Shown piece after piece: positions 2,135 to 17,983 of a stretch of 17,983 nt of DNA (the stretch's first letter is position 1; each line of letters starts with the position of its first letter). The notes below the pieces were generated by a model. The model had not been told where the DNA came from, ran no database searches, and was given only the letters and a program-made list of their open reading frames with translations. The position numbers and the translations under genes are program-made. Origin of the DNA: Hormoscilla sp. (GTDB taxonomy: Bacteria; Cyanobacteriota; Cyanobacteriia; Cyanobacteriales; Desertifilaceae); NCBI GenBank assembly GCA_051439505.1, contig JBFRWI010000149.1:1-17983 (forward strand), written 5' to 3'.

Positions 2135-3409
2135 ATGCGTATTCTGATATATTCCTACAACTACCATCCAGAGCCAATTGGCATCGCCCCTCTCATGACT
2201 GAGTTGGCAGAGGGTCTAGTGAAACGAGGTCATCAGGTGCGGGTGGTCACCGGTATGCCCAACTATCCCCAGCGCCGCATTTATGATGAATATCAGGGCA
2301 AGCTTTATCTGACAGAAGAAAGAAACGGTGTCACGATCGATCGCAGCTATGTTCGGATCAAAGGCCCTCACCCCAGCCTACTCGATCGCTTGCTACTGGA
2401 TGGCAGCTTTATGGTAACAAGCTTCCCCCTCACATTCAAGGGTTGGCGACCGGACGTGATTTTATCCACCAGTCCTCCCTTACCCATTTGCGTACCGGTA
2501 GCTTTATGCGGCTGGTTGCGTGGAGTGCCTGTGGTACTCAACATTCAGGATATTGTCTCGGAAGCAGGGTCTCGCGTAGGTTTGCTGAAAAAAAGTGGTC
2601 TGCTGAGTCGCGCGGTGGACGCTTTAGAAAAATTTGCCTACTGGACAGCCCAGAGAGTAAGCGTGATTGATGATGGGTTCAAACCCAAATTGGCCAGTCA
2701 AGGAGTCCCCGCCGACAAAATTGTCACCATTGCCAATTGGGTGGATGTTAATTTTATCCGACCTTGGCCCCAGGATCGGGAGAACCAATTCCGCCGGGAC
2801 AATCAACTTGATGGTAAATTTGTAGTGCTCTACGCTGGCAACATTGCCCTCACCCAAGGTTTGGAAACGGCGATTCAGGCCGCAGCTCAGCTCCAAAAGT
2901 ACCGGGAAATTGCTTTTGTAATCGTCGGAGAAGAGTCGGCCCTGGAGACATTGCAGGAGTTTCGCTCTACCCACGAAGCTGAAAACGTCCATCTGCTACC
3001 GTTTCAACCGCGAGAAAAGTTGCCAGAAATGCTGGGGGCGGCAGATTTGGGGTTAGTAGTGCAAAAGGATCGGGTGACAGATTTTAACCTGCCGTCCAAA
3101 ATACCGGTACTTCTGGCCAGTGGTCGGGCAATTGTGGGCTCGGTGCCAGCAAGGGGGACGGCGGCCAAAGCAATTAAGAACAGTGGCGGCGGCGTTGTTG
3201 TGGCACCAGAAGACCCCCAAGCCCTAGCGGACCAAATAGAAAAACTATACCGCGATCGCGCTCTGGTCTCTAAGCTGGGCGAGCAAGGCAGAAACTATGC
3301 TGTGGCCCACTACGCCTTCGAGCAAGCGTTGGCTAAGTATGAAGAGGTGTTTGCCGCGCTGACGGAAAAAAAGCCGCATCCACTGCTAGAAAGGAGTAGT
3401 GAAAGTTGA
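2135..3409 (+). CDS. Family 4 glycosyltransferase, WcaI-like
   Basis: 424 aa. N-terminus MRILIYSYNYHPEPIGIAPLMTELAEGLVKRGHQVRVVTGMPNYP; VLYAGNIALTQGL; ADLGLV...PSKIPVLLASGRAIV, typical of the GT-B/GT4 WcaI group. Confidence 0.9.
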   Translation: MRILIYSYNYHPEPIGIAPLMTELAEGLVKRGHQVRVVTGMPNYPQRRIYDEYQGKLYLTEERNGVTIDRSYVRIKGPHPSLLDRLLLDGSFMVTSFPLTFKGWRPDVILSTSPPLPICVPVALCGWLRGVPVVLNIQDIVSEAGSRVGLLKKSGLLSRAVDALEKFAYWTAQRVSVIDDGFKPKLASQGVPADKIVTIANWVDVNFIRPWPQDRENQFRRDNQLDGKFVVLYAGNIALTQGLETAIQAAAQLQKYREIAFVIVGEESALETLQEFRSTHEAENVHLLPFQPREKLPEMLGAADLGLVVQKDRVTDFNLPSKIPVLLASGRAIVGSVPARGTAAKAIKNSGGGVVVAPEDPQALADQIEKLYRDRALVSKLGEQGRNYAVAHYAFEQALAKYEEVFAALTEKKPHPLLERSSES

Positions 3410-3494
3410 CGCTCATGAGCGTATGTCAAGAAACCCGGTGGCTCTTGGGGCAAATATCGATACCGCCCAGAAGACACCGAGTTTACGAGCATAC

Positions 3495-3524
3495 TTGACC
3501 GACATTGAGGTTTGATGATAAAAT
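3495..3524 (+). promoter_or_regulatory. Putative promoter of the rsfS-CGLD27-asparaginase run
   Basis: TTGACC (3495-3500), 18 bp spacer, TG-a-TAAAAT (3519-3524), about 47 nt upstream of the rsfS ATG. Confidence 0.45.
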
Positions 3525-3571
3525 TAATCAATACCTAACCCGACAGACCGGTTGCTAGCGCTAGCGAAAAA

Positions 3572-3940
3572 ATGGAATTGTTAGAAGATAGCTTAAAACT
3601 AGCGAGGATCATAGCTGGGGCAGCGGACGATCGCAAAGCAGCAGACATTGTCATCCTCGACCTGTCAGAAGTGTCCTATCTGGCAGATTACTTCGTGATC
3701 GCTACGGGGTTCTCGAAAGTCCAGGTGCGGGCGATCGCCCGCTCGATCGAAGATAGAGTAGTTGATACTTTCGATCGCTATCCAGCACGCACGGAAGGAA
3801 AAGCAGAAGGAAGTTGGGTACTCCTGGACTACTCGGATGCGATCGCTCATATCTTTATGCCCGCAGAAAGGGAGTATTATAACCTAGAAGCCTTCTGGGG
3901 ACATGCCGAACGGATAGAATTTAACAGTAGTGCTAATTGA
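3572..3940 (+). CDS. rsfS: Ribosome silencing factor RsfS (Iojap)
   Basis: 122 aa; [35 protein letters not shown]...[23 protein letters not shown]. Confidence 0.95.
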
Positions 3941-3956
3941 ATTAGGACCGATACCC

Positions 3957-4484
3957 GTGAGAGAGCCACCTCCCATCTCAGCTTGCCCCGTACCCTGGGA
4001 ACAGCAACCAATCAATGAGTATAAAAACTTGAGTGACTCTTGTTTTTTTGACTGGGCAACTCTCGAACTGCCAGGCTATCTGAGGAAAATAGCGGTAGTT
4101 TGGGGTATCAGTTGGCTGATAACAGGACCGGTGGCAGCAGCAAGCTTTGCACCGGCGAAGTATCCAGTCCAGTTCCTGCTTTGTGGTGCGGGTGGCGCTA
4201 GCTTGTGCTTGAGTTTGGTGCTGCTGAGGCTTTATCTGGGATGGAAATATGTGGGCGATCGGCTCAATAGCGAGACAGTATTATATGAAGAATCGGGCTG
4301 GTATGACGGTCAAACCTGGGCGAAAACTCCCGAAATGTTGGCTCAAGACCGGCTGATATTCACCTACCAAGTCCAACCTATTCTCCGGCGGGTGATGCGA
4401 ATCTTGGCATTCCTGGCTTTATTGTTGCTGGGGGAGATGATAATTTGGGTTGGTTTGTCGCTACTATCGAACTTATACAGTTGA
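3957..4484 (+). CDS. ycf36: CGLD27/Ycf36 (DUF1230) family membrane protein
   Basis: CPVPWEQQPINEY, RLYLGWKYVGDRL, YEESGWYDGQTWAKTPE and DRLI motifs; hydrophobic segments. Start placed at GTG 3957 (AGGA at 3944-3947) rather than the track's 3930, which overlaps rsfS. Confidence 0.88.
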   Translation: MREPPPISACPVPWEQQPINEYKNLSDSCFFDWATLELPGYLRKIAVVWGISWLITGPVAAASFAPAKYPVQFLLCGAGGASLCLSLVLLRLYLGWKYVGDRLNSETVLYEESGWYDGQTWAKTPEMLAQDRLIFTYQVQPILRRVMRILAFLALLLLGEMIIWVGLSLLSNLYS

Positions 4485-4542
4485 AAGATAAAACTGCTCG
4501 ATCTCGATCGTCGGTAGTCCCGGAGGTCCTAAAGTCAAAGCC

Positions 4543-5493
4543 ATGACTAGAGTAAAACGAACTCAAGCAGCAGAACTGGAAGTCAGACTGCTGCGCGAAG
4601 GAATTACAGAATCGACTCATCGCGTCCAAGCGGTTGTCTGCGACCACAGGGGACGTGTTCTTTCCGTGGCCGGTGACAAAGAAACCGCCACCTTCATCCG
4701 TTCTTCGCTGAAGCCTTTTCAAGCCCTAGCCGTGACAACAACCGGCACGATGGAACGCTACGATCTCACAGAGCGAGATTTAGCGATTATTTGTAGCTCT
4801 CACAAAGGGACAACAGAGCAAGCGCGGCAGGCATTTAACGTGCTGTGGCGCTGTGATGTGGATGCCTCCATACTTCAATGTCCCATCCCTGAAGGGAAAG
4901 AAAGTCCCCTACAACACAATTGTTCTGGCAAACATGCGGGGATGCTAGCTGTCTGCCGGCAACGGGACTGGCGAGTGGAAACTTACTTGCGGCGCAATCA
5001 TCCCGTGCAGCAGCAGATCTTGAACAAAGTCGCAGATCTGCTAGGGATGCCAGCTGATGAGTTTATCGGTGCTCGGGATGATTGTGGTGCCCCTACCTAT
5101 GTAATGGAACTGGGACAAATGGCTAGTTTGTACGGAAAGCTGACCTCCGGTGACAATCTGGATATGGAGCGCATTGTCCGGGCGATGATCAATCACCCGA
5201 CTCTGATAGCTGGAGTGGGCGAGTTTGACAGCGAACTGATGACGGCGAGTTCAGGAGAACTGGTCAGCAAAGCCGGTGCAGAAGGAGTTCAGTGCATTGG
5301 TAAGGTCGGCGAGGGCATGGGATTAGCCATTAAAGTGATGGATGGATCCAAACGGGCCAAACATGCTGTGGCGATTCATTTGCTGAAGCAGCTAGGTTGG
5401 ATAACGCCGGCAGTATCGGAAAATCTGGCCGAGAAGTTCATGACATTGACTGAATTCAAGCGCTTGGAGGTGATTGGGGAATTGACGATCTGA
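4543..5493 (+). CDS. L-asparaginase II family (Rhizobium AnsA-type / class 3)
   Basis: 316 aa; RSSLKPFQA, CSSH, HNCSGKHAGML, DDCGAP and SKAGAEG motifs. Confidence 0.9.
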   Translation: MTRVKRTQAAELEVRLLREGITESTHRVQAVVCDHRGRVLSVAGDKETATFIRSSLKPFQALAVTTTGTMERYDLTERDLAIICSSHKGTTEQARQAFNVLWRCDVDASILQCPIPEGKESPLQHNCSGKHAGMLAVCRQRDWRVETYLRRNHPVQQQILNKVADLLGMPADEFIGARDDCGAPTYVMELGQMASLYGKLTSGDNLDMERIVRAMINHPTLIAGVGEFDSELMTASSGELVSKAGAEGVQCIGKVGEGMGLAIKVMDGSKRAKHAVAIHLLKQLGWITPAVSENLAEKFMTLTEFKRLEVIGELTI

Positions 5494-5600
5494 AAAATTT
5501 TTTCAACAGACAAAATCTCTCAAACTCAGTCAGGGAGAGGCTTTCGTGGATTATTGAAGAGAAGATTGCGAAATTTTTCCCAAAATTTTCTCAAAAAAGG

Positions 5601-5629
5601 TTGCCAGATCTGTTTTTTTTAGTTATATT
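5601..5629 (+). promoter_or_regulatory. Putative tRNA promoter
   Basis: TTGCCA (5601-5606), 17 bp, TATATT (5624-5629), 11 nt before the tRNA 5' end. Confidence 0.65.
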
Positions 5630-5640
5630 AGATTTATCGA

Positions 5641-5717
<77 letters not shown>

Positions 5718-5731
5718 AATTATCAATCTAA

Positions 5732-5769
5732 ACAAAACCCTGCAATCAGAAATGGTTGCAGGGTTTTGT
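5732..5769 (+). terminator. Intrinsic terminator-like hairpin after the tRNA, possibly bidirectional
   Basis: ACAAAACCCTGCAATCA-GAAA-TGGTTGCAGGGTTTTGT: 17 bp stem with one G-U pair and a GNRA loop. Confidence 0.75.
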
Positions 5770-5793
5770 CGATCTAGTGCTCGGCCTCCCCGC

Positions 5794-5843
5794 CCGAACC
5801 CTAAAGGGTCCGGCTACTCGAACCAAGCCCGCCTGCGCGGGCT
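5794..5843 (-). repeat. GTAG-type REP-like double-hairpin repeat
   Basis: Minus strand: AGCCCGC-GCAG-GCGGGCT, then GTAG directly followed by hairpin CCGGACCC-TTTA-GGGTTCGG. Resembles dispersed repeats of filamentous cyanobacteria (from recall). Confidence 0.6.
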
Positions 5844-5985
5844 ATATTACATGCATAATCAATGCCGCTAGCTATCAACTACAAGTGAGCGCACCCGTTG
5901 TCAGCGGGGAAGCGTTCACTGGTACGTCGGCCTGGTGCGTTATATCAAATCTGATTGAATGCCCATAATAAAAATTTCATCAACT

Positions 5986-6088
5986 GTAGGTTGGGTTTCC
6001 GCTACTTACCCAACCGGTTGTTGGGTTTCGCTGAAACTGCCGGTTGGGTCTGGAGCACGAAACCCAACCGGTTGTTGGGTTTCGCTGA
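5986..6088. repeat. REP/BIME-like cluster of GTAG-GTTGGGT...ACCCAAC units
   Basis: GTAG at 5986 followed by GTTGGGT...ACCCAAC. Exact 27 bp direct repeat ACCCAACCGGTTGTTGGGTTTCGCTGA at 6008-6034 and 6062-6088; second hairpin GGTTGGGT...ACCCAACC at 6042-6069. Confidence 0.7.
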
Positions 6089-6153
6089 CGATCTAGATGG
6101 TGAGAGTCGGGTTTTCACAAATTGTGAGTAATTACCCGGACTTGATGATACTG

Positions 6154-6679
6154 GGGTGTGGTCAAAAACAGTTGATACACCCGAGACCTTGCGCTCTGCG
6201 TTGCATTCGGGAAGGATATCTATCCTTAACTAGCTGCTGCGCAGCCGCTGCGCTACGCTCCTACAGGGGTATACGACAACTGGTCCGGATCGGAAATGAT
6301 CGACGGGAAATGAGCCACACCCTCCCCAATTAAATCCCGCGCTCAAATGTCCAAAATTTGAGGAGTTTTTGTTAAAAATGTCCAAAATTTTCGTATTTTC
6401 TACGTAGACAAAGTGGTCAGTCCATCAGTACCATAAGGGTGGATGGGTGGGTGTTAGTGGGATGGTAAGTATTTTTGACTTTTTTTTAAAAAAACTTCAA
6501 CCTCGCGTATTTTTTGTAAACAAATCTCTCGCTCTCTCGCGCGGGGGTCAGCTCGCTCGCGGGGGTATATTTTTTATCTTTGCTTAACTTTTCTTGCCGA
6601 AAGTAGGCAGGTGCGAGAGTGGTCCCTGAGCGTGAGCCGAAGGGCAGCAAATGACTATCAACTACTTTTGACCACACCC
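6154..6679. mobile_element. Non-autonomous MITE-like element, 526 bp, 24 bp TIRs, 9 bp TSD
   Basis: Left GGGTGTGGTCAAAAACAGTTGATA (6154-6177); right TATCAACTACTTTTGACCACACCC (6656-6679), 22/24 inverted match. Flanks ATGATACTG (6145-6153) and ACGATACTG (6680-6688), 8/9. No transposase ORF inside. Confidence 0.8.
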
Positions 6680-7073
6680 ACGATACTGTGCTGGTAGCGT
6701 CTGGTGGGCGGTAGAAGGTGCCGGTGATGGCGCGATCGCCCTACATAAGCGTGCCGTAAATCCCTTGCCAGGCATAAGCGCAATATTTGTTGGTGTTTAT
6801 CTCGGGTAGGGTGGAGAAGACAGGAGAACCCAAAACCAGGGTTTGGCAGAATTATCCCACACAATCATTGTCTTAAAAAGTTGGTCGAAATCGGTTATCA
6901 GTTATCGGTTGTTCGCGGTGATAACTAACAAAGTTCTCGGGAACAAGGGATATTTTTATAAATCCTAAATGATGTAGATGTAGAAGGACAATCTATTTTT
7001 GACCGGGAACAAATAATGGTAATTAAGAGACAAGGGTATCGAGAACATGAATTGCAAAATAATTATCATCTAG

Positions 7074-7103
7074 TTGCACGATCGAGGAAATTAATGCTAT
7101 AAT
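7074..7103 (+). promoter_or_regulatory. Putative promoter of the YcjF/DUF697 gene
   Basis: TTGCAC (7074-7079), 18 bp, TG-c-TATAAT (7098-7103); AGGAG just upstream of ATG 7210. Confidence 0.55.
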
Positions 7104-7209
7104 GAAATCAATAAATAATTAGATCTGGTTGCATGAATAGCGCCGAAAAAGAGGTTGAGGAGATAGCATAGATATAAGTAGGTAAAGACATTAACAGGAG
7201 AGAGAAAAA

Positions 7210-8625
7210 ATGGATATTAAATTAAAACGCCCGATTTTAATCGGCGGAGTGGGCCTATCGATGGCACTATGGTTCTGGGAAAGCATCCAGCAAGAAATGG
7301 GTCAACTGTCAGAGTTGACGATGATGGGCGCGATCGCCTTAACTGGACTCTGGTGGTTCAAGCAAAAAGCTGCCAAGACTCTGAATTGGCCAGGAACGGA
7401 ACCGGTGGATAAAGAAAAGGTGGAAAAGGCGATCGCCAAAATCAACGGGGCCATTAACCAGTTAGAAGCGGAAAAGCAAGATGTCTCGACCTGGCGCCAA
7501 GGGGTCGAACAGCTGACGGCGGAGTTAGACCGGAAGGAAATTAGCCTGGCGGTGACCGGTGGTAAAAGCGTGGGTAAAACCAGCTTGATCCAAGGACTTG
7601 ATTCAAGCTGGGAAATTCAGGAAACACCCGCCTTATTTGTGGTTGACGATGGCGAAACAGCAGCAGAGGAAATCTTGTCCAACTCTGATTTAGTGGTGTT
7701 TGTGACGGCGGGAGACCTGACTGACTCGGAGTTTCAAACCTTGCAGCAACTCGCAGCAGTCCACCAGCGGACTGTATTGGCCTTCAACAAGCAAGACCAG
7801 TATTTGCCAGAGGAACAACCGGTGATCTTGGAGCAGCTGCGGCAGCGGACAGCAGGAATATTGGAGTCAAAAGATGTGGTGGCGATCGCCGCCTCTCCCG
7901 ATGCCATGAAGGTGCGCAAGCATTCGGAAGATGGTGAGGTTTCCGAATGGATGGAAAACCAACAACCACAGATCGCACCCCTAACCGAAAGGTTAAGTCA
8001 CATCCTGGAAACGGAAGCTCAACAGCTGGTCTGGGCCACAACTATGCGCCAAGCAGATATCCTCAAGGGTGAGGTAAAGGAAGTCCTCAATGGACTGCGG
8101 CGCGATCGGGCCCTGCCCATTATCGAGCAATATCAGTACATTGCTGCTGCTGCTGCCTTTGCGAACCCCATTCCCACCTTAGATTTACTGGCAACTGGGG
8201 CCATTAACGGTCAGTTGGTGATGGATTTGGGAGCAGTTTATCAGCAAAAATTTGACCTCGATCGGGCCCAGAAAGCTGCGGGCACCATCGGCAGTCTGAT
8301 GCTGAAACTGGGTTTAGTTGAACTTACCACCCAAACCATTAGCGGCATCCTGAAAAGTCATGCCGTCACCTACGTTGCGGGTGGAGTCGCCCAGGGAGTC
8401 AGTGCTGCTTATTTGACTCGATTGGCTGGTTTAAGCTTGATTGAATATTTCCAAGCTCAGGATCTGACTGTAGAGGAAGGTTTCAATCTTGACAAGCTGG
8501 GAGAAACCCTGAAAAATGTGTTTCAACAAAATAACCGCATGGCCTTTTTTCAGGGTTTTGTCAAGCAAGTGGCAGGCCGTCTGGTGCCCGTTGAACCCAA
8601 ATTAGCTGAGAAAGCTGTTAGTTAG
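7210..8625 (+). CDS. YcjF/DUF697 family protein with N-terminal TM segments and a GTPase-like domain
   Basis: 471 aa. Two N-terminal hydrophobic stretches; P-loop GGKSVGKT; degenerate G3 (ETPA); G4 NKQD; C-terminal QYQYIAAAAAFANPIPTLDLLA...QGVSAAYLTRLAG (DUF697 pattern). Confidence 0.85.
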   Translation: MDIKLKRPILIGGVGLSMALWFWESIQQEMGQLSELTMMGAIALTGLWWFKQKAAKTLNWPGTEPVDKEKVEKAIAKINGAINQLEAEKQDVSTWRQGVEQLTAELDRKEISLAVTGGKSVGKTSLIQGLDSSWEIQETPALFVVDDGETAAEEILSNSDLVVFVTAGDLTDSEFQTLQQLAAVHQRTVLAFNKQDQYLPEEQPVILEQLRQRTAGILESKDVVAIAASPDAMKVRKHSEDGEVSEWMENQQPQIAPLTERLSHILETEAQQLVWATTMRQADILKGEVKEVLNGLRRDRALPIIEQYQYIAAAAAFANPIPTLDLLATGAINGQLVMDLGAVYQQKFDLDRAQKAAGTIGSLMLKLGLVELTTQTISGILKSHAVTYVAGGVAQGVSAAYLTRLAGLSLIEYFQAQDLTVEEGFNLDKLGETLKNVFQQNNRMAFFQGFVKQVAGRLVPVEPKLAEKAVS

Positions 8626-8682
8626 TTGTTAATTATTGGTTCATGGTTTATGGTTAATTGTCAGCCATGAACCACGAACAAT
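8617..8682. repeat. Degenerate heptamer (STRR-like) run forming a hairpin after the DUF697 gene
   Basis: Roughly 7 bp periodic TTGTTAA/TGGTTCA/TGGTTTA/TGGTTAA; 10 bp inverted repeat TGGTTCATGG (8637-8646) / CCATGAACCA (8665-8674). Confidence 0.55.
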
Positions 8683-8947
8683 ATAATCCATTCGACCGGA
8701 ATTATGCATCGATTACGCACGCTTCGCTACGATCTAGACGGCACCAAACCATGCAAGAATTTATGTTATTTGACGACTCTTTCTTTGTCTGAATAGAAAT
8801 GCTTCCGCTCCTACAGGTATCTTTGCAAATATGCAGTGTACCCGCATATTTTAAATGTTAATAATTTATATATCTCTACTTGCATTTTTATGTCTCTACT
8901 TTCGTTATAGTTTTCCCAACTGATTCGCTCCACTCTCCACAGATCCA

Positions 8948-8980
8948 TTACCTGGAGGTGCAGACTGGAAGGAACGGAGA
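8948..8980 (+). pseudogene. 3'-terminal relic of an upstream DUF29-like copy
   Basis: TTACCTGGAGGTGCAGACTGGAAG (8948-8971) is identical to 9553-9576, which encodes LPGGADWK at the C-terminus of 9073..9591. The following intergenic DNA is also duplicated. Confidence 0.75.
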
Positions 8981-9072
8981 CATATTATCATTTTGCCAGA
9001 ACGACATGCGATCGCCTGGATTTGGCGCTATAATGAAATGAGCGGAGACGATCTCCGACAGGGAGGAGAATT

Positions 9073-9591
9073 ATGACTCAGGAACTAATGGACTTAAGGA
9101 CTAGCATTCTTGAGGGAAGGTATGAGGATGCTTTGCTAATTGTAGATGAACTAGAGGGAATGAGCAAACAGGGAATCCTGCGAAATATCGAATCATTTTT
9201 AGTCAGGATGCTGATGCCGTTGATTAAAAACCAAGTCGATCGGCGATTAACTAATTCTTGGGCGGCTTCAATTCGCGGTTCGCTGGTAGAAATAAAAAAG
9301 CTGAATCTCAAAGACAATAAAACATCTTATTACGTCAAATCGGATGAATGGGAGGAAATGCTTGCAGATGCATTAGAACTTGCTATAGGTGAGGCGAGTG
9401 TGGAAGTAATGGATGGTACTTACACTCCATTTCAACTTGAGGAGATGGTGGAAAAAAATCAGTTAATCCTGACTGCTAAGAGTCTATTGGATCTGACTTA
9501 CCGTCACTCGAAAAGAGCGTTACCCTCTGTTATTAATGATTATTTAAGTCAGTTACCTGGAGGTGCAGACTGGAAGAACGGGAAACGATAA
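9073..9591 (+). CDS. DUF29-like family protein (cyanobacterial)
   Basis: 172 aa; GGAGG RBS; TATAAT at 9029-9034; ELEGMSKQ...IESFLVRML.LIK.Q...RLTNSWAASI pattern recalled for cyanobacterial DUF29 proteins. Confidence 0.75.
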   Translation: MTQELMDLRTSILEGRYEDALLIVDELEGMSKQGILRNIESFLVRMLMPLIKNQVDRRLTNSWAASIRGSLVEIKKLNLKDNKTSYYVKSDEWEEMLADALELAIGEASVEVMDGTYTPFQLEEMVEKNQLILTAKSLLDLTYRHSKRALPSVINDYLSQLPGGADWKNGKR

Positions 9592-9901: not shown

Positions 9902-10501
9902 TTATCCTACCTCCTCGATCGCCGCGAGCAAGGCATCGAAAGAACCGACATCGAAAAACAGCACGATGTCTCCTTGAACTTGCAGTTCCTCGATATCAAA
10001 ACGCGCTTGTGCCAAGAGCACAGTTGTGTTAGCATCAGACTGCTTGATTGGCATCAAATGCTCCACTTCCTCCTCTATATAAGTGGGAGGAACATAGGTG
10101 AGAGGCTTATCTAGCACATTCCCTATTGAACCCATCACACCGTTGATCACGATATTGCCTACTTCCGTGAGGGTGCCAATCTTCAGGGAATCCAGTTCTG
10201 GACTTTCGGGATCCTCCCCCGTGAGCACTGCTACTAGGGTTGCAGCACTCTCCGTGGGGAAAACTAGCTCGGCGGTCCCCGCAAAAGAGCCCGTGAAGTC
10301 CAGCTGCACTGCGGAAAGGGGATCTTTACCGAGGCGTCCTATTAGTTCTTCTTGCAACTCCATAGGGGAGAATAGCTGGATCACGGGAATCTGCAATCGG
10401 ATGCGGAATTCAATCATTTCATTCAACATCCCAGCCGCTTGACCAACACCTATGTTGATCAGCTCCTTCAAGGCATCCAATTGGTCGGCTGTTAGCTTCA
10501 C
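9902..10501 (-). CDS. cheC: CheC-family CheY-P phosphatase
   Basis: Two intact E-x-x-N sites (LDALKELINIGVGQAA; IGTLTEVGNIVING), plus F.GSFAG.AELVF and YVPP. Likely start GTG 10501 with AGGAG upstream (track start 10522). Confidence 0.88.
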   Translation of the reverse strand: MKLTADQLDALKELINIGVGQAAGMLNEMIEFRIRLQIPVIQLFSPMELQEELIGRLGKDPLSAVQLDFTGSFAGTAELVFPTESAATLVAVLTGEDPESPELDSLKIGTLTEVGNIVINGVMGSIGNVLDKPLTYVPPTYIEEEVEHLMPIKQSDANTTVLLAQARFDIEELQVQGDIVLFFDVGSFDALLAAIEEVG

Positions 10502-10511
10502 TGAATCTCTC

Positions 10512-10874
10512 CTATTTTCCACCTAGAGCTTTGCCGATCGCCTCGGTGATTTCCGGCGCTTTCGGAGGCTTATTCAGCATCATAAAGGCTCCCAGATCCA
10601 TGCATTGCTGACGGGCGCTTTCCTGGATGTCTGCTGAGAGCACGATTACCGGAATTTTTGACCCCCGATCGCGCAACTGCTGGAGCGTGCCAAAACCGTC
10701 CAGTTCCGGCATTAACAGATCCAGCAGAATACAATCAGGGCTATGGGCCGCCACCATCTCTAGGCATTCATTCCCATTGCCTGCTTCGATCGCCTCATGG
10801 TTATCTGCTTGCACTGCTTTTTTTATCATCCGGCGGGAAAACGCCGCATCGTCGGTAATTAAAATTAATGCCAT
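10512..10874 (-). CDS. Single-domain CheY-like response regulator
   Basis: 120 aa; ITDD, ILLDLLMPELDG, VLSAD and NKP, so all phosphorylation-site residues are present. Confidence 0.9.
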   Translation of the reverse strand: MALILITDDAAFSRRMIKKAVQADNHEAIEAGNGNECLEMVAAHSPDCILLDLLMPELDGFGTLQQLRDRGSKIPVIVLSADIQESARQQCMDLGAFMMLNKPPKAPEITEAIGKALGGK

Positions 10875-10926
10875 TTTCGGGAATTTTTCCTATACATTCT
10901 GTGGGACTATCGCGACCAAAGTTATT

Positions 10927-12171
10927 TTAGCTAGTTTGGTACTCAATTGAGCTTTCATATTCAATATTTTCGGCATCCTGGGCGAGGGTAAAGTAGAAGG
11001 TTGCCCCCTGGTTTATGGCTGCTTCTGCCCAGATACGCCCTCCGTGACTGTGAACGATCCGCTGCACCGTGGCCAGACCAATGCCTGTGCCTTCAAACTC
11101 AGACGCATTATGCAGCCGCCGAAAGGGAGTAAATAGTTTATCCGCCCTGTCCATATCAAAGCCTACACCATTATCGCGCAAAAAATATACCAGATCGTCA
11201 GGGGTCTTTTTTCCTGGGCAATTTGCAACATTACAAACACCGAATTCTATTGCAGTTTGCTTTTCCTTCGACGTATACTTCCAGGCATTCCCTACCAAGT
11301 TTTCTAGGGCGATCCGCAGCATATTTTCATCCCCTTGAATGATGATGTCCGGGGCGATCGAGAACTTTGCCTGTCGTTCCGGTTCCCTCATCTGGAGCGA
11401 TTTGGTAATATCGAACAGCATCGCACTCAAGTCCACTGGCTCCCATTTTAGCTCGCTGCGAACCGCTAGAGATAGATTCAGCAAGTCTTGGATCAGCTGC
11501 CCCATATCCCCGACCGCCTCACGAATCATTTGAATATAATGCTGGCCTTTCCCCTCTAGCTGGTTGGCGTATTTTGCTTGCAGTATATAGCTGAAACCAT
11601 CGATCGTTTGCAGTGGGTTCCGCAGGTCGTGGGATACCGTGTAGCTGAAGGTTTCTAGTTCTTTATTTAGGGCTTCTAGTTGCTCAGTACGCCTTTTCAG
11701 TTCTCTGTTAGCCGCTTCTAACTGTAAACTGCGCTTTTTTAGTTCTTCTTGGGTCCCCTTACGCTCAATGGCATAGCGGATCGCGTGGACTAGCAGTTCC
11801 GCGATCGCCGTGTTCTTGACTAGATAATCCTGGGCACCCTGCCGTACCGCCTGACTCGCTAGCTGTTCGTCATCCATCCCAGTTAGCACTACAATTGGTA
11901 AACTCGATGCCTGCTCTTGCAGGGTTAGGAATGTCTCCAGTCCTTGGCTGTCTGGTAAGGAAAGATCCAATAATATGACGTCAATTTTCTCTGCTGACAG
12001 GCGGGCGATCGCCTCTGATAACCGTTCCACATGAGTCAGCTTAAACCACAAACTATTGTTGTCCCGCTTTAACTTCTCTTCGATCAAGAAAGCGTCTCCG
12101 AGGTTATCTTCCACCAACAGGACTCTAATTATCTTCGCACCATTCCTTTCGCCCATATTCCCTTTCCCCAC
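10927..12171 (-). CDS. Hybrid histidine kinase: N-terminal REC, coiled coil, HisKA, HATPase
   Basis: LLVEDNLGD, ILLDLSLPDSQG, AQDYLVK; H-box ELETFSYTVSHDLRNPL; N-box ENLVGNAWKY; G1 DNGVGF; F box LFTPF; G2 GTGIGL. Confidence 0.92.
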   Translation of the reverse strand: MGKGNMGERNGAKIIRVLLVEDNLGDAFLIEEKLKRDNNSLWFKLTHVERLSEAIARLSAEKIDVILLDLSLPDSQGLETFLTLQEQASSLPIVVLTGMDDEQLASQAVRQGAQDYLVKNTAIAELLVHAIRYAIERKGTQEELKKRSLQLEAANRELKRRTEQLEALNKELETFSYTVSHDLRNPLQTIDGFSYILQAKYANQLEGKGQHYIQMIREAVGDMGQLIQDLLNLSLAVRSELKWEPVDLSAMLFDITKSLQMREPERQAKFSIAPDIIIQGDENMLRIALENLVGNAWKYTSKEKQTAIEFGVCNVANCPGKKTPDDLVYFLRDNGVGFDMDRADKLFTPFRRLHNASEFEGTGIGLATVQRIVHSHGGRIWAEAAINQGATFYFTLAQDAENIEYESSIEYQTS

Positions 12172-12203
12172 TTATCTTTCTTGTTTATTCCTCACGGTTT
12201 TAT

Positions 12204-12650
12204 TCACTCTGATGGTAGCTGAACTATATTGAACCAAAAGCTTTCAATCGAATTCACGACTTTCAGGAAATCATTGTATTCAAATGGTTTGGTAATATAG
12301 CAGCTAGCGTACAGCCTGTAGCTATTCAGGATATCTTGTTCCGCCCTTGAGGATGTGAGCACTACCACGGGAATTTCCTTGAGGTTTTCATCCCTTTTTA
12401 TTTCCGTCAACACCTCAAAGCCATTTTTCCTGGGCAGATTTAGATCCAGCAGGATCAGATGGGGACGGGGTGCCCGAGTATATTCTCCTTCTCGACGTAG
12501 ATAATTCACCGCCAACTCGCCGTCCGCTACCTGATGCAGGCTGTGGCGCACCGGGCTTTCATTCAGGGTACTGGTGATTAAAAATACGTCACCTGGGTTA
12601 TCTTCTACCAATAATATTTCCAGACTTTGACTGAGTTGATTACTATTCAT
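12204..12650 (-). CDS. Rcp1-type (phytochrome-associated) single-domain response regulator
   Basis: 148 aa; LLVEDNPGD, HLILLDLNLPRKNG, VVVLTSS, YITKP, C-terminal IESFWF. ATGA overlap with the upstream kinase. Confidence 0.9.
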   Translation of the reverse strand: MNSNQLSQSLEILLVEDNPGDVFLITSTLNESPVRHSLHQVADGELAVNYLRREGEYTRAPRPHLILLDLNLPRKNGFEVLTEIKRDENLKEIPVVVLTSSRAEQDILNSYRLYASCYITKPFEYNDFLKVVNSIESFWFNIVQLPSE

Positions 12651-13789
12651 TCTTGATTAGGTTTATCTGAGAGAGTAAATTTAAATGTCGATCCTATGCC
12701 CGGTGCTGACTCTACCCAAATGCGTCCGTCATGACGCTCGACAATTTTCTTGCAGATCGCCAGTCCGATGCCCGTGCCGGGATATTCCTGTCGCGTGTGC
12801 AGGCGCTGAAAGATCAGAAATACCCGCTCTTGCTGCTTTTCCTCGATACCTATACCATTATCCTTCACCCAGAACAGCCACTCACCCTCCTGGCGTGAGG
12901 ATCCTACATTTACTTCTGGGTCCTCTTCCCGGCGGTACTTAATCGCGTTGGAGAGCAGGTTCTGAAATAGCTGCACCAGTTGTCCTTCATCTGCTAGCAA
13001 TGTCGGCAGGGGGTCTGCGTTTATATCGGCACCACTCTGTGAGATCGCAAACTGGAGGTTGGCGATCGCTTTCTGTAAGGCCGCTTCCGAGTCTGTCAAC
13101 TGAAAGTCTTTCCCGTACCTCCCCACCCGCGAATACATCAGCAAATCATTAATCAGCGCCTGCATCCGGGTCGCCCCATCCACTGCGAAATTAATGATTT
13201 GGTCTGCTTGGGCATCCAGCTTGCCAGAGTACCGCTGTCCTAATAGTGTAGTAAAGCTGGTCACCATCCGCAAGGGCTCTTGTAAGTCATGGGAGGCCAC
13301 ATAGGCAAACTGTTCTAATTCGGCATTAGAACGTTTTAGTTCTGCCTCTGTCCGCTTCCGCTGCTTAATCTCTGCCTGGTACCGCTGGATCCGGTGGGTC
13401 AGTTCTGTCACATCCTGGATCGAGATCAGGGCGTAGAAACCGGGGTCATCGGTGAATGCTGGCACTGCCGTGATGGTGGTCTGCTGGATGCGGGGCCGAC
13501 CATTGGGCATTTCTGCGGGAATCACCGCCTGGTGCAGTTGGGAGGAAAACACCGCTGGAAACCCCTTCTCAAACACCTGTTGCAAGCGCAACTTATACTT
13601 AGGTGCTTGCAGATGGGGAAAACTGGCGTCAAGGGGCCTGCCGAGAATTTCCGCTGTCGGAATTTTCGTCCAGTCCGACAGGCAGCGGTTCCAAAACAGC
13701 ACCACCAAATCTTGCCGCAGCAGACACAAGCCCACTGGCACGTGATCCAGCATCCTCAACTTGCTTGCTGCTATCTCAATCTCTTTCAT
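12647..13789 (-). CDS. Soluble PAS histidine kinase with a Cph1/BphP-type transmitter, no GAF/PHY domain
   Basis: PAS-like LDHVPVGLCLL...VLFWN...EILGRPL...QDVT; LKRSNAELEQFAYVASHDLQEPLR; QLFQNLLSNAIKY; DNGIGI; FQRLH...YPGTGIGLAICKKIVERH. Confidence 0.92.
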   Translation of the reverse strand: MKEIEIAASKLRMLDHVPVGLCLLRQDLVVLFWNRCLSDWTKIPTAEILGRPLDASFPHLQAPKYKLRLQQVFEKGFPAVFSSQLHQAVIPAEMPNGRPRIQQTTITAVPAFTDDPGFYALISIQDVTELTHRIQRYQAEIKQRKRTEAELKRSNAELEQFAYVASHDLQEPLRMVTSFTTLLGQRYSGKLDAQADQIINFAVDGATRMQALINDLLMYSRVGRYGKDFQLTDSEAALQKAIANLQFAISQSGADINADPLPTLLADEGQLVQLFQNLLSNAIKYRREEDPEVNVGSSRQEGEWLFWVKDNGIGIEEKQQERVFLIFQRLHTRQEYPGTGIGLAICKKIVERHDGRIWVESAPGIGSTFKFTLSDKPNQE

Positions 13790-13805
13790 CTACCCCCAAA
13801 ACCCG

Positions 13806-14630
13806 TCATTTTTTTATTCTATAGCATACAGCTTTATCTAATTGTACTGGCTTGAAACCATCATCCAGATTCAGGGTGGTTTCCCCGCCCCCTAGAAACA
13901 GGTAGCCATCCGGTCGCAACAACTGCCGCACTCTACCTAGTATAGCCTGTTTTGTCTCAACTGAGAAATAGATCAGGAGGTTCCGCAGAAAGATAATGTC
14001 CATTTGGGGCATTGCTGGTGGCCAAGCTTTAGCTAGATTTAATTGGCTAAATTCTACCATTCTGCGGATTTCTGGGTCCATCTGCCACTTATTGTCAGAG
14101 TAGTGGAAATATTTTAATAATAGTGTTTGTGGCAGTCCACGGCTAATTTCCTGCTGATTGTAGCGTCCCTCACGAGCACGGGCTAATATTTCCTCAGAAA
14201 TGTCGCTCCCTAGCAACTGCACTTTCCATGTAATTAGCTGGGGAAAATTTTCTCTCAGTAGCATGGCGATGCTGTAGGGTTCCTGGCCACTGGAACAGGC
14301 GGCGGACCAAATACTCAGGCTACGACTGCTTTCTCGCTGTTTTATTAGTTCTGGCAAAATGGATTTCTTCAGCGCCTCGAAGGGATGCTTGTCGCGGAAA
14401 AATAATGTCTCCGTGGTCATCATTGCCTCGACTACCTGCTGTTGTAAATTCTTCCCTTGTTGCAGGCGCAGTTGCGCTACCAGTTCGCTCACGGAACCCA
14501 CTTCTATTTTCCTCGCTAATGCTGTCAAACGGGACTCTACTAGGTACTTTTTGTCCGACCCCAGCTCTACTGCTGCCCGATCGCGCACCAGTTGGCAAAT
14601 GTACTGAAAATCTGTTCCATTTATCGACAT
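13806..14630 (-). CDS. cheR: Protein-glutamate O-methyltransferase CheR
   Basis: KKYLVESRL, TTETLFFRD, IWSAACSSGQEPYS, GSDIS, DIIFLRNLLIYF, DGYLFLGGGE. Start uncertain (ATG 14630 or 14654). Confidence 0.95.
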   Translation of the reverse strand: MSINGTDFQYICQLVRDRAAVELGSDKKYLVESRLTALARKIEVGSVSELVAQLRLQQGKNLQQQVVEAMMTTETLFFRDKHPFEALKKSILPELIKQRESSRSLSIWSAACSSGQEPYSIAMLLRENFPQLITWKVQLLGSDISEEILARAREGRYNQQEISRGLPQTLLLKYFHYSDNKWQMDPEIRRMVEFSQLNLAKAWPPAMPQMDIIFLRNLLIYFSVETKQAILGRVRQLLRPDGYLFLGGGETTLNLDDGFKPVQLDKAVCYRIKK

Positions 14631-14711
14631 TGGCGCTATTTGTAAATTGTTCATTGTCAACTGGTTATTGTCAATTGTTATTGCCGCTCGACTATTTTCT
14701 CTTCTCTTTCA

Positions 14712-15731
14712 TTATTTCTTTTCAGATTTAAATAACAAATCTAGGAGTAATCTCGCTGGAAAAAAGAGGAAAAAGTTACCATCGATTTCCAGGTCTTTTA
14801 TCTGGAAATGTGACCGTGATAGAACTATGGTTGAATTATAACTCAAATCCAGTAAATACAATATTTCTGCTGTCGAACATTCTCTATGTTTGGGAGTTGC
14901 ATATTGCACTTGATAGTTAAACGCATTGCTTAAAGTCCCGATCGCACCATTGATGGCAACATTACCGATTTCAGCTAAAATATCAGCTTTAGATTGGGTA
15001 AATTCTTCAGGGGAACATTCTTCTTCAATGAAGTTCAATACTAGGGCGTCTGCTGCTTCTATTGATAATAATATCTGGGCCGAGCCAGAAAAATTACCAG
15101 AAAAATCAAGCTGGGCTACAGATAGTTCGTGGTCTCCTAACAGGACTGCTAGTTTTTTTTGCAACAGCAGTGGGGGAAATGCTTCATTCACGGGTTCGGC
15201 AAATTCAATTTCGCAGGAGATTAATTCACTCAAATATTCGAGCGCCATGGCGAGGGCGGAGCTAATGCTCGACTGCAAGCTAGTTTTGTCAAATATTTGC
15301 GAGTCGGTTAAATTAAACTCAAAATTAGGCATGGGTGCGACAACTTCCTGGATCTGCCGGGAAGCGATCGCCAGTTCAACGGTGCGGTGCAATTCTATTT
15401 TTTTGAGAGGTTTGTTAATAATAGCAAATATCCCTATATTGATAAAATACTGACTCAGATTTCCGGGGATATTCTCACCGATGATGATTATGGGGACATC
15501 CAAAAAATGGAGAAATTGAATGGCTAGCAAATAATTATTCTCAATCATTGAGAAATCTAGCACCACGCATCCAGGATGATGACATTCGGCAATATCCAGG
15601 CATTTGTATACGTCGCTAGCTTCCACAAATACATACTCTTCTGCTTGCAACGCGACACGTTGCCTCTGACGTTCTATGTCAGACTCACAGGCGATCAGAA
15701 TTAAATAAATTGGTTTAGAAAAAGTAGGCAT
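14712..15731 (-). CDS. Fusion of a degenerate receiver domain and a CheC-like domain
   Basis: 339 aa. N-half aligns by eye with the CheY at 10512 (LILI, QA, EA, CL, H.P.C..LD..M.E, NKP). C-half aligns with CheC (QLDFSGNFSGSAQI, AEIGNVAINGAIG). AT-rich. Confidence 0.8.
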   Translation of the reverse strand: MPTFSKPIYLILIACESDIERQRQRVALQAEEYVFVEASDVYKCLDIAECHHPGCVVLDFSMIENNYLLAIQFLHFLDVPIIIIGENIPGNLSQYFINIGIFAIINKPLKKIELHRTVELAIASRQIQEVVAPMPNFEFNLTDSQIFDKTSLQSSISSALAMALEYLSELISCEIEFAEPVNEAFPPLLLQKKLAVLLGDHELSVAQLDFSGNFSGSAQILLSIEAADALVLNFIEEECSPEEFTQSKADILAEIGNVAINGAIGTLSNAFNYQVQYATPKHRECSTAEILYLLDLSYNSTIVLSRSHFQIKDLEIDGNFFLFFPARLLLDLLFKSEKK

Positions 15732-15847
15732 TACCTATTAAGTAGTAGATCGGTTTTTTGTAAAAACATGGTTTCTGGGGTACTGGCGAACATATTAGCA
15801 AATCCTCGGTTTTGTTTCCGCACGAATGCCGCACTGGTATTATTCAG

Positions 15848-16230
15848 CTAAATCGATAACAACGGGACTCCATATAAATTAAATATCTTATCCCGCGTTA
15901 AAATTGTTAACCCTTCTGTCATAGCCTGAGCAATTAACAGCCGGTCAAATGGGTCTTTATGGTGCAACGGTAACCGTCCCAACCTCAAAACATGAGAAGG
16001 ATTCACCGCTAAAAACGATATTCCATTTTGACTTTGACTCTGATAAATTTTTTCTAAAGGTTGATTGACGGTTAACTTTCCCAACTGACTTTTAATTTGA
16101 ATTTCCCACAAACTCACAACACTGACAACACTGTATCCGGTTGCATCAAAAACTCCACAATCTCATTTGATAACTGTTGTGGCTGACTATCCCACCAAAT
16201 AAACGCATGAGTATCTAATAAAACTTTCAT
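15848..16230 (-). pseudogene. vapC: PIN-domain (VapC-like) toxin, frameshifted
   Basis: ATG 16230 (ATGA overlap with antitoxin): MKVLLDTHAFIWWDSQPQQLS...PDTVLSVL*, stop at 16116-16114. Another frame continues VSVVSLWEIQIKSQLGKL...LPLHHKDPFDRLLIAQA...LTILTRD. Span is 383 nt, not a multiple of 3. Confidence 0.85.
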
Positions 16231-16460
16231 AGACCCCAAAAAGCGTCAGGTAAAGGCTCATCAAAATCATCGCTCATCACCATTGCCCCATAATTTAACC
16301 CGACCTTGGATGTCACTGGTTGCTCAACTGGCAATGGCATAACCTTGGCCAAAGGCACTCCCGATACGCACAACAGCACCTCGGTCTGATTTTGAATATC
16401 AGACAATAAATCTATTAAGTTCTCAGATAACTTAGTAATCTCAAAAGTTTTCTGTGACAT
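16227..16460 (-). CDS. Type II antitoxin (Phd/YefM-like, with DUF2281-type C-terminal DDFDEPLP motif)
   Basis: 77 aa MSQKTFEI...EVLL...GVPLAKVMP...MSDDFDEPLPDAFWGL; GGAG RBS before ATG 16460; coupled to the PIN gene. The track's longer start overlaps cheB. Confidence 0.8.
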   Translation of the reverse strand: MSQKTFEITKLSENLIDLLSDIQNQTEVLLCVSGVPLAKVMPLPVEQPVTSKVGLNYGAMVMSDDFDEPLPDAFWGL

Positions 16461-16512
16461 TTTCAGCTCCCCCAACCTTCCCAGTAATGTCAAGTATAAT
16501 ATTATTTCGGTG

Positions 16513-17571
16513 CTACTTACCCGATCGCTTGATAATCTCACTAGAAATTTGGTGCAGCGGCAATACCCGATCGGCCAGACCGGCGTTGGCCACCATTCCG
16601 GGCATGCCCCACACCACACTGCTAGCTTCATCCTGTACTAAAATTTGACCGCCAGCTTCCCGAATGCATTGGCAACCAGCAAGTCCATCCTGTCCCATGC
16701 CGGTTAGCACGACGGCGAGGGTCCCCGCACCATAACTGTTCCCTAGGGAACGAAAAAGTACGTCCACCGCAGGGCGACAGGAGTTCTCCGGTGGGCGTTT
16801 GTGGGTGCGAATGCGGACATTTTTCCCTTCTCGCTCCACTACCATGTGGAAATCTCCTGGTGCTAGCCATACTTGCCCCGCCCGGATCTCAGCACCGTCA
16901 AAACCCTCGGCTACCTGGAGTTGGCAGGTTTGTGAGAGTCTCTGTGCTAAGCGTTTTGTGAATAGTGGTGGCATGTGCTGCACGATTACTACCGGTACTG
17001 GGAAATTTGCTGGCAAGGCGGGCAACAGACTAGCGAGGGCGTTGGGACCACCCGTGGATACCCCGATCGCTACTATCTCCACTCGTTCGAGAACTTTTGC
17101 TGGTCCTCTTGCTGGTACTTTCGATAGCGGTGGCCTCACTCGGGTCCGAGGCCGATCGCCCCCCCTAGTACAGAATACTTTAATTTTCCCAATCAGTTGT
17201 TGGCGCAGATACTGCAACGCTGCTTCCTTGCTACTGGTGTTAGCTGGTTTTGTGACATAATCTGTAGCACCTAGGGCGATCGCGTCCAGGGTAATAGAGG
17301 CACCCCGTTCCGTGAGGGCGCTGAACATAATCACCGGCATCTTGGGATAGTTTCTCCGGATCGCCCCCAAGGTTTCCAGACCGTCCATTTCCGGCATCTC
17401 CACATCCAGTACAATCAGGTGGGGATTTACCTGGGGAATTTTGGCCAGGGCGATCCGACCATTTGCGGCCACCCCTACTACCTCTAGTTCTGGATCCTCT
17501 GAAAGGACATTGGATACCATCCGCCGCACTAGAACGGAGTCATCGACAACCAGAATGCGGATTTTTGGCAT
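16513..17571 (-). CDS. cheB: Chemotaxis response regulator methylesterase CheB
   Basis: REC (VVDDS, VLDVEMP, TKP) plus the esterase triad motifs GVSTGGP, VQHMP, LTGMGQDG; also RPAVDVLF and QDEASSVVWGMP. Confidence 0.96.
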   Translation of the reverse strand: MPKIRILVVDDSVLVRRMVSNVLSEDPELEVVGVAANGRIALAKIPQVNPHLIVLDVEMPEMDGLETLGAIRRNYPKMPVIMFSALTERGASITLDAIALGATDYVTKPANTSSKEAALQYLRQQLIGKIKVFCTRGGDRPRTRVRPPLSKVPARGPAKVLERVEIVAIGVSTGGPNALASLLPALPANFPVPVVIVQHMPPLFTKRLAQRLSQTCQLQVAEGFDGAEIRAGQVWLAPGDFHMVVEREGKNVRIRTHKRPPENSCRPAVDVLFRSLGNSYGAGTLAVVLTGMGQDGLAGCQCIREAGGQILVQDEASSVVWGMPGMVANAGLADRVLPLHQISSEIIKRSGK

Positions 17572-17856: not shown

Positions 17857-17983
17857 GGGTGTGGTCAAAAGTAGTTGATAGCCGGGTGCATTGATGATAC
17901 ATATAGCCCAGGCCGCCACAAGCATGTAAGAGTTACAGACAGCGGCGCAACGGTTACAGACAGCGGCGCAACGGTTACAGACA
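17857..17983 (+). mobile_element. Start of a second element of the same TIR family (truncated by the window edge)
   Basis: GGGTGTGGTCAAAAGTAGTTGATAG (17857-17881) is the exact reverse complement of 6655-6679. Confidence 0.7.
17932..17983. repeat. 21 bp perfect tandem repeat, at least 2.5 copies, runs off the edge
   Basis: GTTACAGACAGCGGCGCAACG at 17932 and 17953, partial third copy at 17974. Confidence 0.9.

Follow-up and report, generated by a model that had tools for sequence, protein, structure and literature searches.

A CheY-CheC-PAS trio as the candidate motor-free output of an F5-type chemosensory system in the cyanobacterium Hormoscilla

Here, we describe a chemosensory gene cluster of the cyanobacterium Hormoscilla sp. 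(genome G000, assembly GCA_051439505.1). It lies on a stretch of 17,983 nucleotides, hereafter the window, which is the whole of contig C149 (JBFRWI010000149.1), and its output part appears to be a trio of a CheY-type receiver, a CheC protein, and an enzyme with a dedicated N-terminal PAS domain. The initial annotation of the window had listed ten co-oriented, mostly tightly spaced genes, and all ten are present on the minus strand according to the open reading frame calls, Pfam, and NCBIfam, with intergenic gaps, from the PIN toxin gene downward, of 116, 51, 16, -4, 32, 52, and -11 bp.

Genes of the window

The most upstream gene, cheB (16513..17571; this and all following genes are on the minus strand), encodes a receiver (REC) joined to a methylesterase and is of the F5 type according to Pfam, NCBIfam, and the CheB tree; its D56 and its S172/H199/D295 are intact. 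The F5-type methyltransferase gene cheR (13806..14660), without TPR, was recognized by Pfam, by its SAM-binding motifs, and by an F5 profile, which it matches with 406 bits vs ≤163 for the three paralogues of the genome. Below it lie a histidine kinase (HK; 12647..13789) that combines a trio-type N-terminal PAS (residues 1-135) with a phytochrome-type core carrying H167 (Pfam, structural model, motifs), an Rcp-type single-domain response regulator (12204..12650; D69; Pfam, motifs), and a REC-HisKA-HATPase kinase (10927..12171; D69 and H181; Pfam, motifs). The trio-type cheY (10512..10874) was identified by subfamily comparison and by its motifs (D52, S80, K102, and S/T-A-D-I-Q), and cheC (9902..10522) by Pfam, by its nearest solved relative, Thermotoga CheC (E 4e-20), and by both phosphatase sites, E20-x2-N23 and E120-x2-N123. 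The H-, N-, and G-boxes are present in both kinases. For CheB, CheR, CheY, CheC, and the kinases alike, the patterns applied are those which we take to be the motifs of the respective families.

The catalytic motifs, annotated as intact, are so in CheB, CheR, and the cheC at 9902-10522, but not in the REC-CheC fusion (14712..15731; Pfam, motif check), in which the first phosphatase site is gone, only the second E-x2-N site is kept, and the degenerate receiver is without acidic pocket and switch Thr. Its orthologues in G226, L116, and Okeania (n=3) are also without phospho-Asp. As judged from sequence, the fusion is a diverged duplicate of cheY-cheC, with a long branch in the tree. Between cheB and this fusion an AT-rich toxin-antitoxin pair (15848-16460) is inserted. 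Both annotated genes of the pair were located, i.e., a VapB-like antitoxin of 77 aa (16227..16460; a weak NCBIfam match, E 7e-5, and frame reading), regarded as a passenger insertion, and a PIN/VapC-like toxin gene (15848..16230; Pfam PIN on its second part, three-frame reading); the toxin gene, however, is frameshifted near 16120, and the covering contig of run X3 shows no indel there. No such antitoxin gene was seen from cheB to cheR in the metagenome locus L116, which is the nearest relative.

GC content (47.7% for the contig vs 48.2% for the genome) and HIP1 density (0.83 vs 1.0 per kb) fit the genome, and the CheB has cyanobacteria as its nearest named relatives; contamination is ruled out on these grounds, as the annotated cyanobacterial origin had implied. 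The promoter scan was near chance (17 vs 11.8 +/- 3.7), and the terminator scan gave 10 vs 7.6 +/- 3.1. In the RNA run X5, contigs of a related strain cover cheC-cheY, both kinases, and cheB, and not cheR/REC-CheC; these contigs may derive from DNA and are not counted as expression.

The CheA, CheW, and receptor genes on contig C37

As annotated, the window holds no cheA, cheW, or gene for a methyl-accepting receptor; it is a complete contig that ends, upstream of cheB, in an assembly break at a 21-bp tandem repeat (17932..17983, strandless, from repeat reading). The search of the remaining genome that the annotation had called for found the cognate CheA, CheW, and receptor genes on another contig of the same assembly, C37, and the cluster is hence not a relic. 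Genome G000 has four cheB, four cheR, 18 CheW-domain matches, and 13 receptor matches above the cut-off. On C37 the order is cheA, an Rcp-type regulator, cheW, parA, and a poly-HAMP receptor that is cut at the contig end within repeats. The CheA (C37:12298-14577) scores 980 bits against the CheA profile of the related clusters and the next CheA of the genome 366; for the CheW (C37:15080-15520) the corresponding values are 204 and 108 bits. Pairing of the CheB/CheR of the window with the other CheAs (C26, C226, C176, and the Tfp-type) was ruled out by the profile scores.

L116 carries, on one strand, receptor-cheB-cheR-REC-CheC-PAS-HK-rcp-REC-HK-cheY-cheC-cheA, and L123 carries cheA-cheW-parA-receptor-cheB-cheR-PAS-HK. 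In addition, X2 and X3 contigs leave the C37 repeat via ten residues that equal the opening of the last L116 receptor repeat, and their ends continue for 125 and at least 255 letters; the L116 match sits just before the methyl-accepting domain. Because of these two gene orders and these contig ends, we consider that the C37 and C149 halves belong together. The repeat occurs at several contig ends and no contig spans the C37-C149 junction; the read depth on the HAMP repeat is many times that of single-copy DNA, which is not a copy number. The shortest contig of the assembly has 2676 bp.

The C37 CheA has the architecture Hpt-dimer-HATPase-CheW-CheW, with one Hpt, a 66-residue dimerization match, and no REC. 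Two CheW domains are reported for 99% of F5 CheAs in PMC10782961, whose supplement file 2 tabulates cyanobacterial F5 CheAs in at least 18 rows and calls those of the same architecture and similar length cheaF5; the table of that paper includes an F5 CheA of Leptolyngbya boryana, a strain in use for genetic work. The order A-W...B-R is found in 11 related genomes and in L123, and is spread over two contigs in this assembly. From the hairpin tip to the C-terminus the related receptors measure 134 residues in 11 of 12 cases and 137 in one, i.e., about 19 heptads per arm, by length count and not by a class hidden Markov model (HMM). With a highest 19-residue hydropathy of 1.3, the 12 measured receptors are soluble, and they have methylation-type E/Q pairs, according to what we take to be the methylation-site consensus. 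Our assignment to class F5 is by CheA architecture and, in relatives, by gene order and receptor length, not by class HMMs. The alternative-cellular-function (ACF) class, which had been proposed in the initial annotation, was ruled out by the C37 CheA, which is without C-terminal receiver; the Tfp class (Pix/Pil/Hmp) by the one Hpt, the 66-residue dimerization match, and the lack of REC; and the F1 class by the receptor length, which fits 38 heptads, and by CheD, the usual partner of CheC, which was not found in 5/5 genomes.

Azospirillum Che1, Caulobacter, and the actinobacterial F5 systems share with this one the two-CheW CheA and, as far as its relatives show, the order cheA-cheW...cheB-cheR and receptors of 38-heptad length (F5 features as given in PMC10782961 and PMC10746217). 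Unlike these, the present system has a CheC, a protein that does not belong to the F5 set, and its CheY is from another subfamily that travels with cheC and the PAS enzyme. Flagellar-motor control is the predicted function of class F5, not its sequence definition, and no flagellar switch gene was found: FliG_C is absent from G000 (93% complete), the same search being positive in four flagellated control genomes. All considered, we read the window as the adaptation and output half of an F5-class system, with its CheA, CheW, and soluble poly-HAMP receptor on C37. The annotated methylation-adapting pathway with a non-motor kinase output finds support in these genes.

The assembled part of the receptor (C37:17135-19637, equal to L095:9136-11638) is without sensor domain and consists of a kinase-type poly-HAMP array only, which matches PDB 9TRK, the poly-HAMP of Myxococcus AskA, at E 3e-100. 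In contrast to AskA, a methyl-accepting domain follows the array in complete relatives. PMC13446029, a 2026 paper, describes an AskA-type array upstream of GAF-kinase modules and another array type upstream of methyl-accepting domains; the receptor thus joins two poly-HAMP types treated there as separate lineages. Among the complete relatives, L096:13083-15380 and L101:2707-4011 have an AskA/group-III kinase-type array and then the methyl-accepting domain, and receptor length across relatives runs from 340 aa to well over 800. Directly before the receptor lies the gene of a ParA-family ATPase with a basic N-terminus (C37:15755-16615), seen also in Okeania L016 and in L123, L140, and L143; a ParA beside a receptor brings to mind the nucleoid-based positioning of soluble arrays. 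The genome has a second non-Tfp system on C26:616-12088 (L209), with cheA, cheW, a receptor, a HEAT-repeat protein, cheR, cheB, and a distant CheC-like gene.

Orthologues of the F5-type CheB were scored in 401 cyanobacterial genomes (five candidates per genome, cut-off E≤1e-95) and found in 13 (~3%), this genome included; one further genome with the orthologue, G016, came from 40 relatives. In all 13 other genomes examined, cheY, cheC, and a PAS protein lie within the cheA cluster. Eleven share the fixed divergent order PAS kinase<-cheC<-cheY | cheA-cheW-receptor-cheB-cheR (G016 with a second receptor), the cluster of G226 is shuffled, yet complete, and in G314 the trio lies next to cheA-cheW-receptor, while cheB-cheR are on a separate contig. 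In G226 there is also a gene for a REC-adenylate/guanylate cyclase (L096:10307-11395), with similar genes of 362-368 aa in L125, L143, and L149; a cyclic-nucleotide output is possible in the G226 lineage. The same gene order as in the window is kept in L116-L119, as the suggested synteny survey brought out, and the core genes of L116 are 51-73% identical. None of the non-cyanobacterial F5 loci fetched (e.g., L013, L015, L019, L020, and L035) has a cheY-cheC-PAS trio. In a quick tree of 50 CheB rows, the 15 from cyanobacteria group as a single clade (SH-aLRT 97), with Acidobacteria, Planctomycetes, and others around it; one old acquisition followed by patchy loss would be the simplest reading, in agreement with the annotated ancient acquisition. 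The accompanying notion that CheB/CheR are unusual for cyanobacterial Che-like systems is not supported: a CheB domain of any type occurs in 263/401 genomes, and a cheB/cheC/cheR cluster of Arthrospira was described in 2010 (PMC2853384). That cluster is alike in its cyanobacterial adaptation enzymes; the CheAs of Arthrospira, however, are classed F1, ACF, and Tfp, not F5.

The cheY-cheC-PAS trio and its exchangeable enzymes

A metagenome scan by the PAS domain alone yielded 76 loci, from the best 80 of 202 stretches. cheC is directly upstream of the PAS gene in 60 of these; 50 have cheY, cheC, and PAS side by side, 5 have a fused REC-CheC ahead of PAS, and another 5 have cheC next to PAS where cheY is cut off or was missed. 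In 7 loci cheC is elsewhere in the locus, and in 9 it was not seen (4 of the rearranged type of the window and 5 under 3.3 kb). An F5 core gene is present in 24/76 loci, 22 of them HIP1-rich, and the 42 loci that have no F5 core gene and are not HIP1-rich are probably non-cyanobacterial. Named homologues of the PAS family come from Desulfonema, Desulfobacterales, and a Halobacteriota archaeon; among five named genomes checked, one has the family. Of the 401 cyanobacterial genomes, 26 have the CheC subfamily and 35 the PAS family; wherever the PAS match is strong (E≤1e-45; 25 genomes) the CheC subfamily is there as well, and all 13 F5-CheB genomes lie among these 25.

The initial annotation had given cheY, cheC, and the PAS kinase as separate genes; the conserved output is the trio. 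It is a unit, which also occurs alone and in other phyla, with exchangeable outputs. Eight trio-only regions have no cheA nearby. The stand-alone trios L194 and L195 (G005 and G429), both cyanobacterial, have PAS-PAS-GAF-GGDEF at their end and no cheA in the vicinity. CheY-CheC fusions that are intact and keep both phosphatase sites are found at L126:5015, L155:3434, and L169:8593, in L126 and L155 directly before a PAS protein; such fusions apparently arose more than once. The distance matrices of CheY, CheC, and PAS correlate at 0.69-0.79, a correlation that kin also share and that is not used as support.

The PAS family comprises 501 clusters at E≤1e-30. In all 150 representatives listed, the domain starts within the first 30 residues; H86 is 99% conserved in the 135 aligned ones, and C36 is also highly conserved. 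Behind the PAS domain of 53 proteins (68 minus near-duplicates) there are HisKA in 41, a receiver in 30, GGDEF in 10, Hpt in 5, and EAL in 1, i.e., elsewhere hybrid kinases or diguanylate cyclases begin with this PAS domain. The PAS model (pLDDT 94) has structural matches to many PAS sensors at 13-20% identity, none of them naming a ligand; the fold resembles LOV, heme, and PYP sensors, and the Atlas returned generic PAS clusters only. Natural CheC-PAS fusions were not found among the longer proteins, which is a weak negative. In P0195, P0196, and P0197, a CheC of this subfamily forms the C-terminal part of a CBS-kinase-receiver protein.

The core of the PAS kinase of the window shares 62% identity with the phytochrome of this genome, and downstream of that phytochrome gene, too, lie an Rcp gene and a REC-kinase. 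The annotated phytochrome-type relay is in this respect real; the version with a phytochrome-type kinase and Rcp, however, is found in only 9/76 loci, and the Rcp relay is one lineage's add-on. Compared with the Cph1/Rcp1 relay, the kinase core and the Rcp regulator that follows are alike, whereas the trio-type PAS here replaces the GAF-PHY photosensor: Pfam finds PAS_4, HisKA, and HATPase_c only, and no PAS-GAF-PHY photosensory module.

A proposed CheC docking relay and its alternatives

With moderate confidence we favor a relay in which CheY signals not to a motor but through CheC docking on the PAS domain of the neighboring kinase, i.e., from the receptor and CheA to CheY-P, CheC, PAS, the kinase, and finally the Rcp and REC kinase. 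Briefly, a cytoplasmic array of 38-heptad receptor, CheW, and two-CheW CheA would sense an internal cue (the genes are present; the array and the cue are postulated), and CheR and CheB would methylate and demethylate the receptor (the motifs are present; the activity is taken from the family). CheA would phosphorylate the trio CheY, as gene linkage suggests. CheY-P would then bind CheC, and CheC would hydrolyze CheY-P and gain affinity for its partner, by analogy with Bacillus CheC-CheD, which here would be PAS. The activity of the PAS-linked enzyme would change in consequence; in this lineage the Rcp regulator and the REC-kinase would receive phosphate from the phytochrome-type kinase, which may share targets with the phytochrome of the cell. 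As the final physiological output one may guess at a lifestyle switch (motility state, matrix).

The following speaks for a docking relay. First, the input pair and the N-terminal domain stay constant while the enzyme varies, which is the anatomy of such a relay, and the simplest common link is physical, because a diguanylate cyclase is unable to phosphorylate CheY. Second, there is the precedent of CheC-CheD together with the lack of CheD in the genomes searched: in Bacillus, CheY-P strengthens CheC-CheD binding, which according to PMC3513319 outweighs the minor phosphatase role of CheC. The F1 system CheY-CheC-CheD of Bacillus subtilis is like this one in a CheC with two E-x2-N sites and in CheY-P-dependent partner binding, the principle proposed here; it is unlike in that CheC would here bind an enzyme-borne PAS domain, for a forward output in place of the receptor feedback of Bacillus. 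More broadly, and with slightly less than even confidence, CheY-CheC-PAS would be an undescribed and widespread plug-in relay, in which CheC reads CheY-P, docks on the dedicated N-terminal PAS, and switches the fused enzyme, and which would have given a cyanobacterial flagellar-class array on a kinase-type poly-HAMP receptor a motor-free output.

Several points weigh against the docking proposal and the system built around it. Binding, phosphotransfer, and expression are predictions made from gene content and motifs. Many trio loci are close kin or near-duplicates, and the counts overstate their independence. Twelve of the 401 genomes have the trio without F5 CheB, and the trio is therefore independent of this CheA; another ten have weaker PAS-family members and no CheC match. 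In this lineage cheY-cheC lie two genes away from the PAS kinase. Okeania L016 is without the trio within 10 kb of cheB and has REC-CheC, cheB, cheR, a receptor, and parA. We infer, and do not see, the adjacency of C37 and C149 in this genome, and the assembly lacks the receptor signaling domain (best 106 bits vs 386-490 in relatives). The CheB orthologue is absent from all four same-genus genomes. The conserved Cys and His of the PAS domain could hold a cofactor, and both CheC active sites are invariant in 39/39 sequences, which fits a plain phosphatase equally well.

The last two points bear on an alternative that we regard as unlikely but serious: CheC is only a CheY phosphatase, PAS senses a small molecule or cofactor, and the PAS kinase feeds CheY or runs parallel to it, so that signals are integrated at CheY and its real target is to be sought elsewhere. 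Besides the invariant E-x2-N sites and the likeness of the PAS fold to sensors together with conserved C36 and H86, this would suit the hybrid kinases with CheC fused behind the last receiver and the stand-alone trios, which have mostly housekeeping neighbors and no other kinase gene upstream. Against it, PAS heads a diguanylate cyclase in 10/53 proteins, yet cheY-cheC lie directly upstream (e.g., L135, L165, L194, and L195); in five PAS-only regions without cheC, the F81-H86 motif is gone from 4/5 copies; and none of the solved PAS sensors matches the PAS domain in sequence.

It is rather improbable that CheA phosphorylates a receiver of the relay (the REC-kinase or Rcp) directly, with CheY and CheC as a phosphate sink. 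Such a route would resemble CheA3-CheS3 of Rhodospirillum centenum (PMC4436063), and it finds points in its favor in the second Rcp-type gene between cheA and cheW on C37 and in the receivers of 30/53 PAS-family proteins. The Che3 system (CheA3-CheS3-CheY3) is also a CheB/CheR system with a second histidine kinase as output, but as far as PMC4436063 describes it, it has a CheA-REC hybrid and direct CheS3 phosphorylation, and no CheC or PAS docking. The 11 canonical clusters contain neither Rcp nor the REC-kinase, and direct transfer leaves unexplained why PAS, not a receiver, travels with cheY-cheC.

The docking relay also has to be weighed against the cluster being a decaying, rearranged remnant in this strain, which we hold to be very improbable. 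The toxin-antitoxin insertion with its frameshift, the degenerate long-branch REC-CheC, the absence from the same genus, and the missing receptor tail would all agree with decay. All core frames are open with motifs intact, however, the order and the identity to L116-L119 are kept as given above, and the receptor tail appears to be present in the DNA of the sample, as the X2/X3 contigs indicate.

Class F5 is known and tabulated in cyanobacteria, while the conserved coupling to a CheY-CheC-PAS module, and the module itself, appear undescribed: the full-text literature, in which subscription papers are few, gave no account of the trio or of a cyanobacterial F5 output, the available parts of PMC5812497, PMC2577667, PMC8789113, and PMC9239204 included. 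A five-gene F5 core is mentioned for Calothrix PCC 7507 and Nostoc PCC 7107 (PMC6194562), a full che set without flagella is noted for Trichodesmium (PMC2829493), and PMC5913679 cites a cheB/cheR deletion at the cheAWR/cheB locus of Nostoc punctiforme that had no motility phenotype. Class F5 counts as 'flagellar', and yet those ~3% of cyanobacteria keep it; the cluster names a candidate answer to what a flagellar-class CheY may do in a cell without a motor. If CheC is indeed an adaptor that hands CheY-P to PAS, this would be a new coupling of phosphorelays to kinases and c-di-GMP, in a PAS family that reaches about 500 sequence clusters with members in cyanobacteria, Desulfobacterales, and archaea.

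Two minor observations concern the surroundings. In Okeania L016:11056-12318 a short broken cheR piece precedes the intact cheR, and the receptor gene there has runs of N at its repeats. In the window, positions 2-1405 (minus strand) hold the start of a DUF4347/beta-helix repeat protein that runs off the contig, and 2135-9591 hold ordinary neighbors, i.e., a glycosyltransferase, rsfS, CGLD27, asparaginase II, DUF697, and DUF29.

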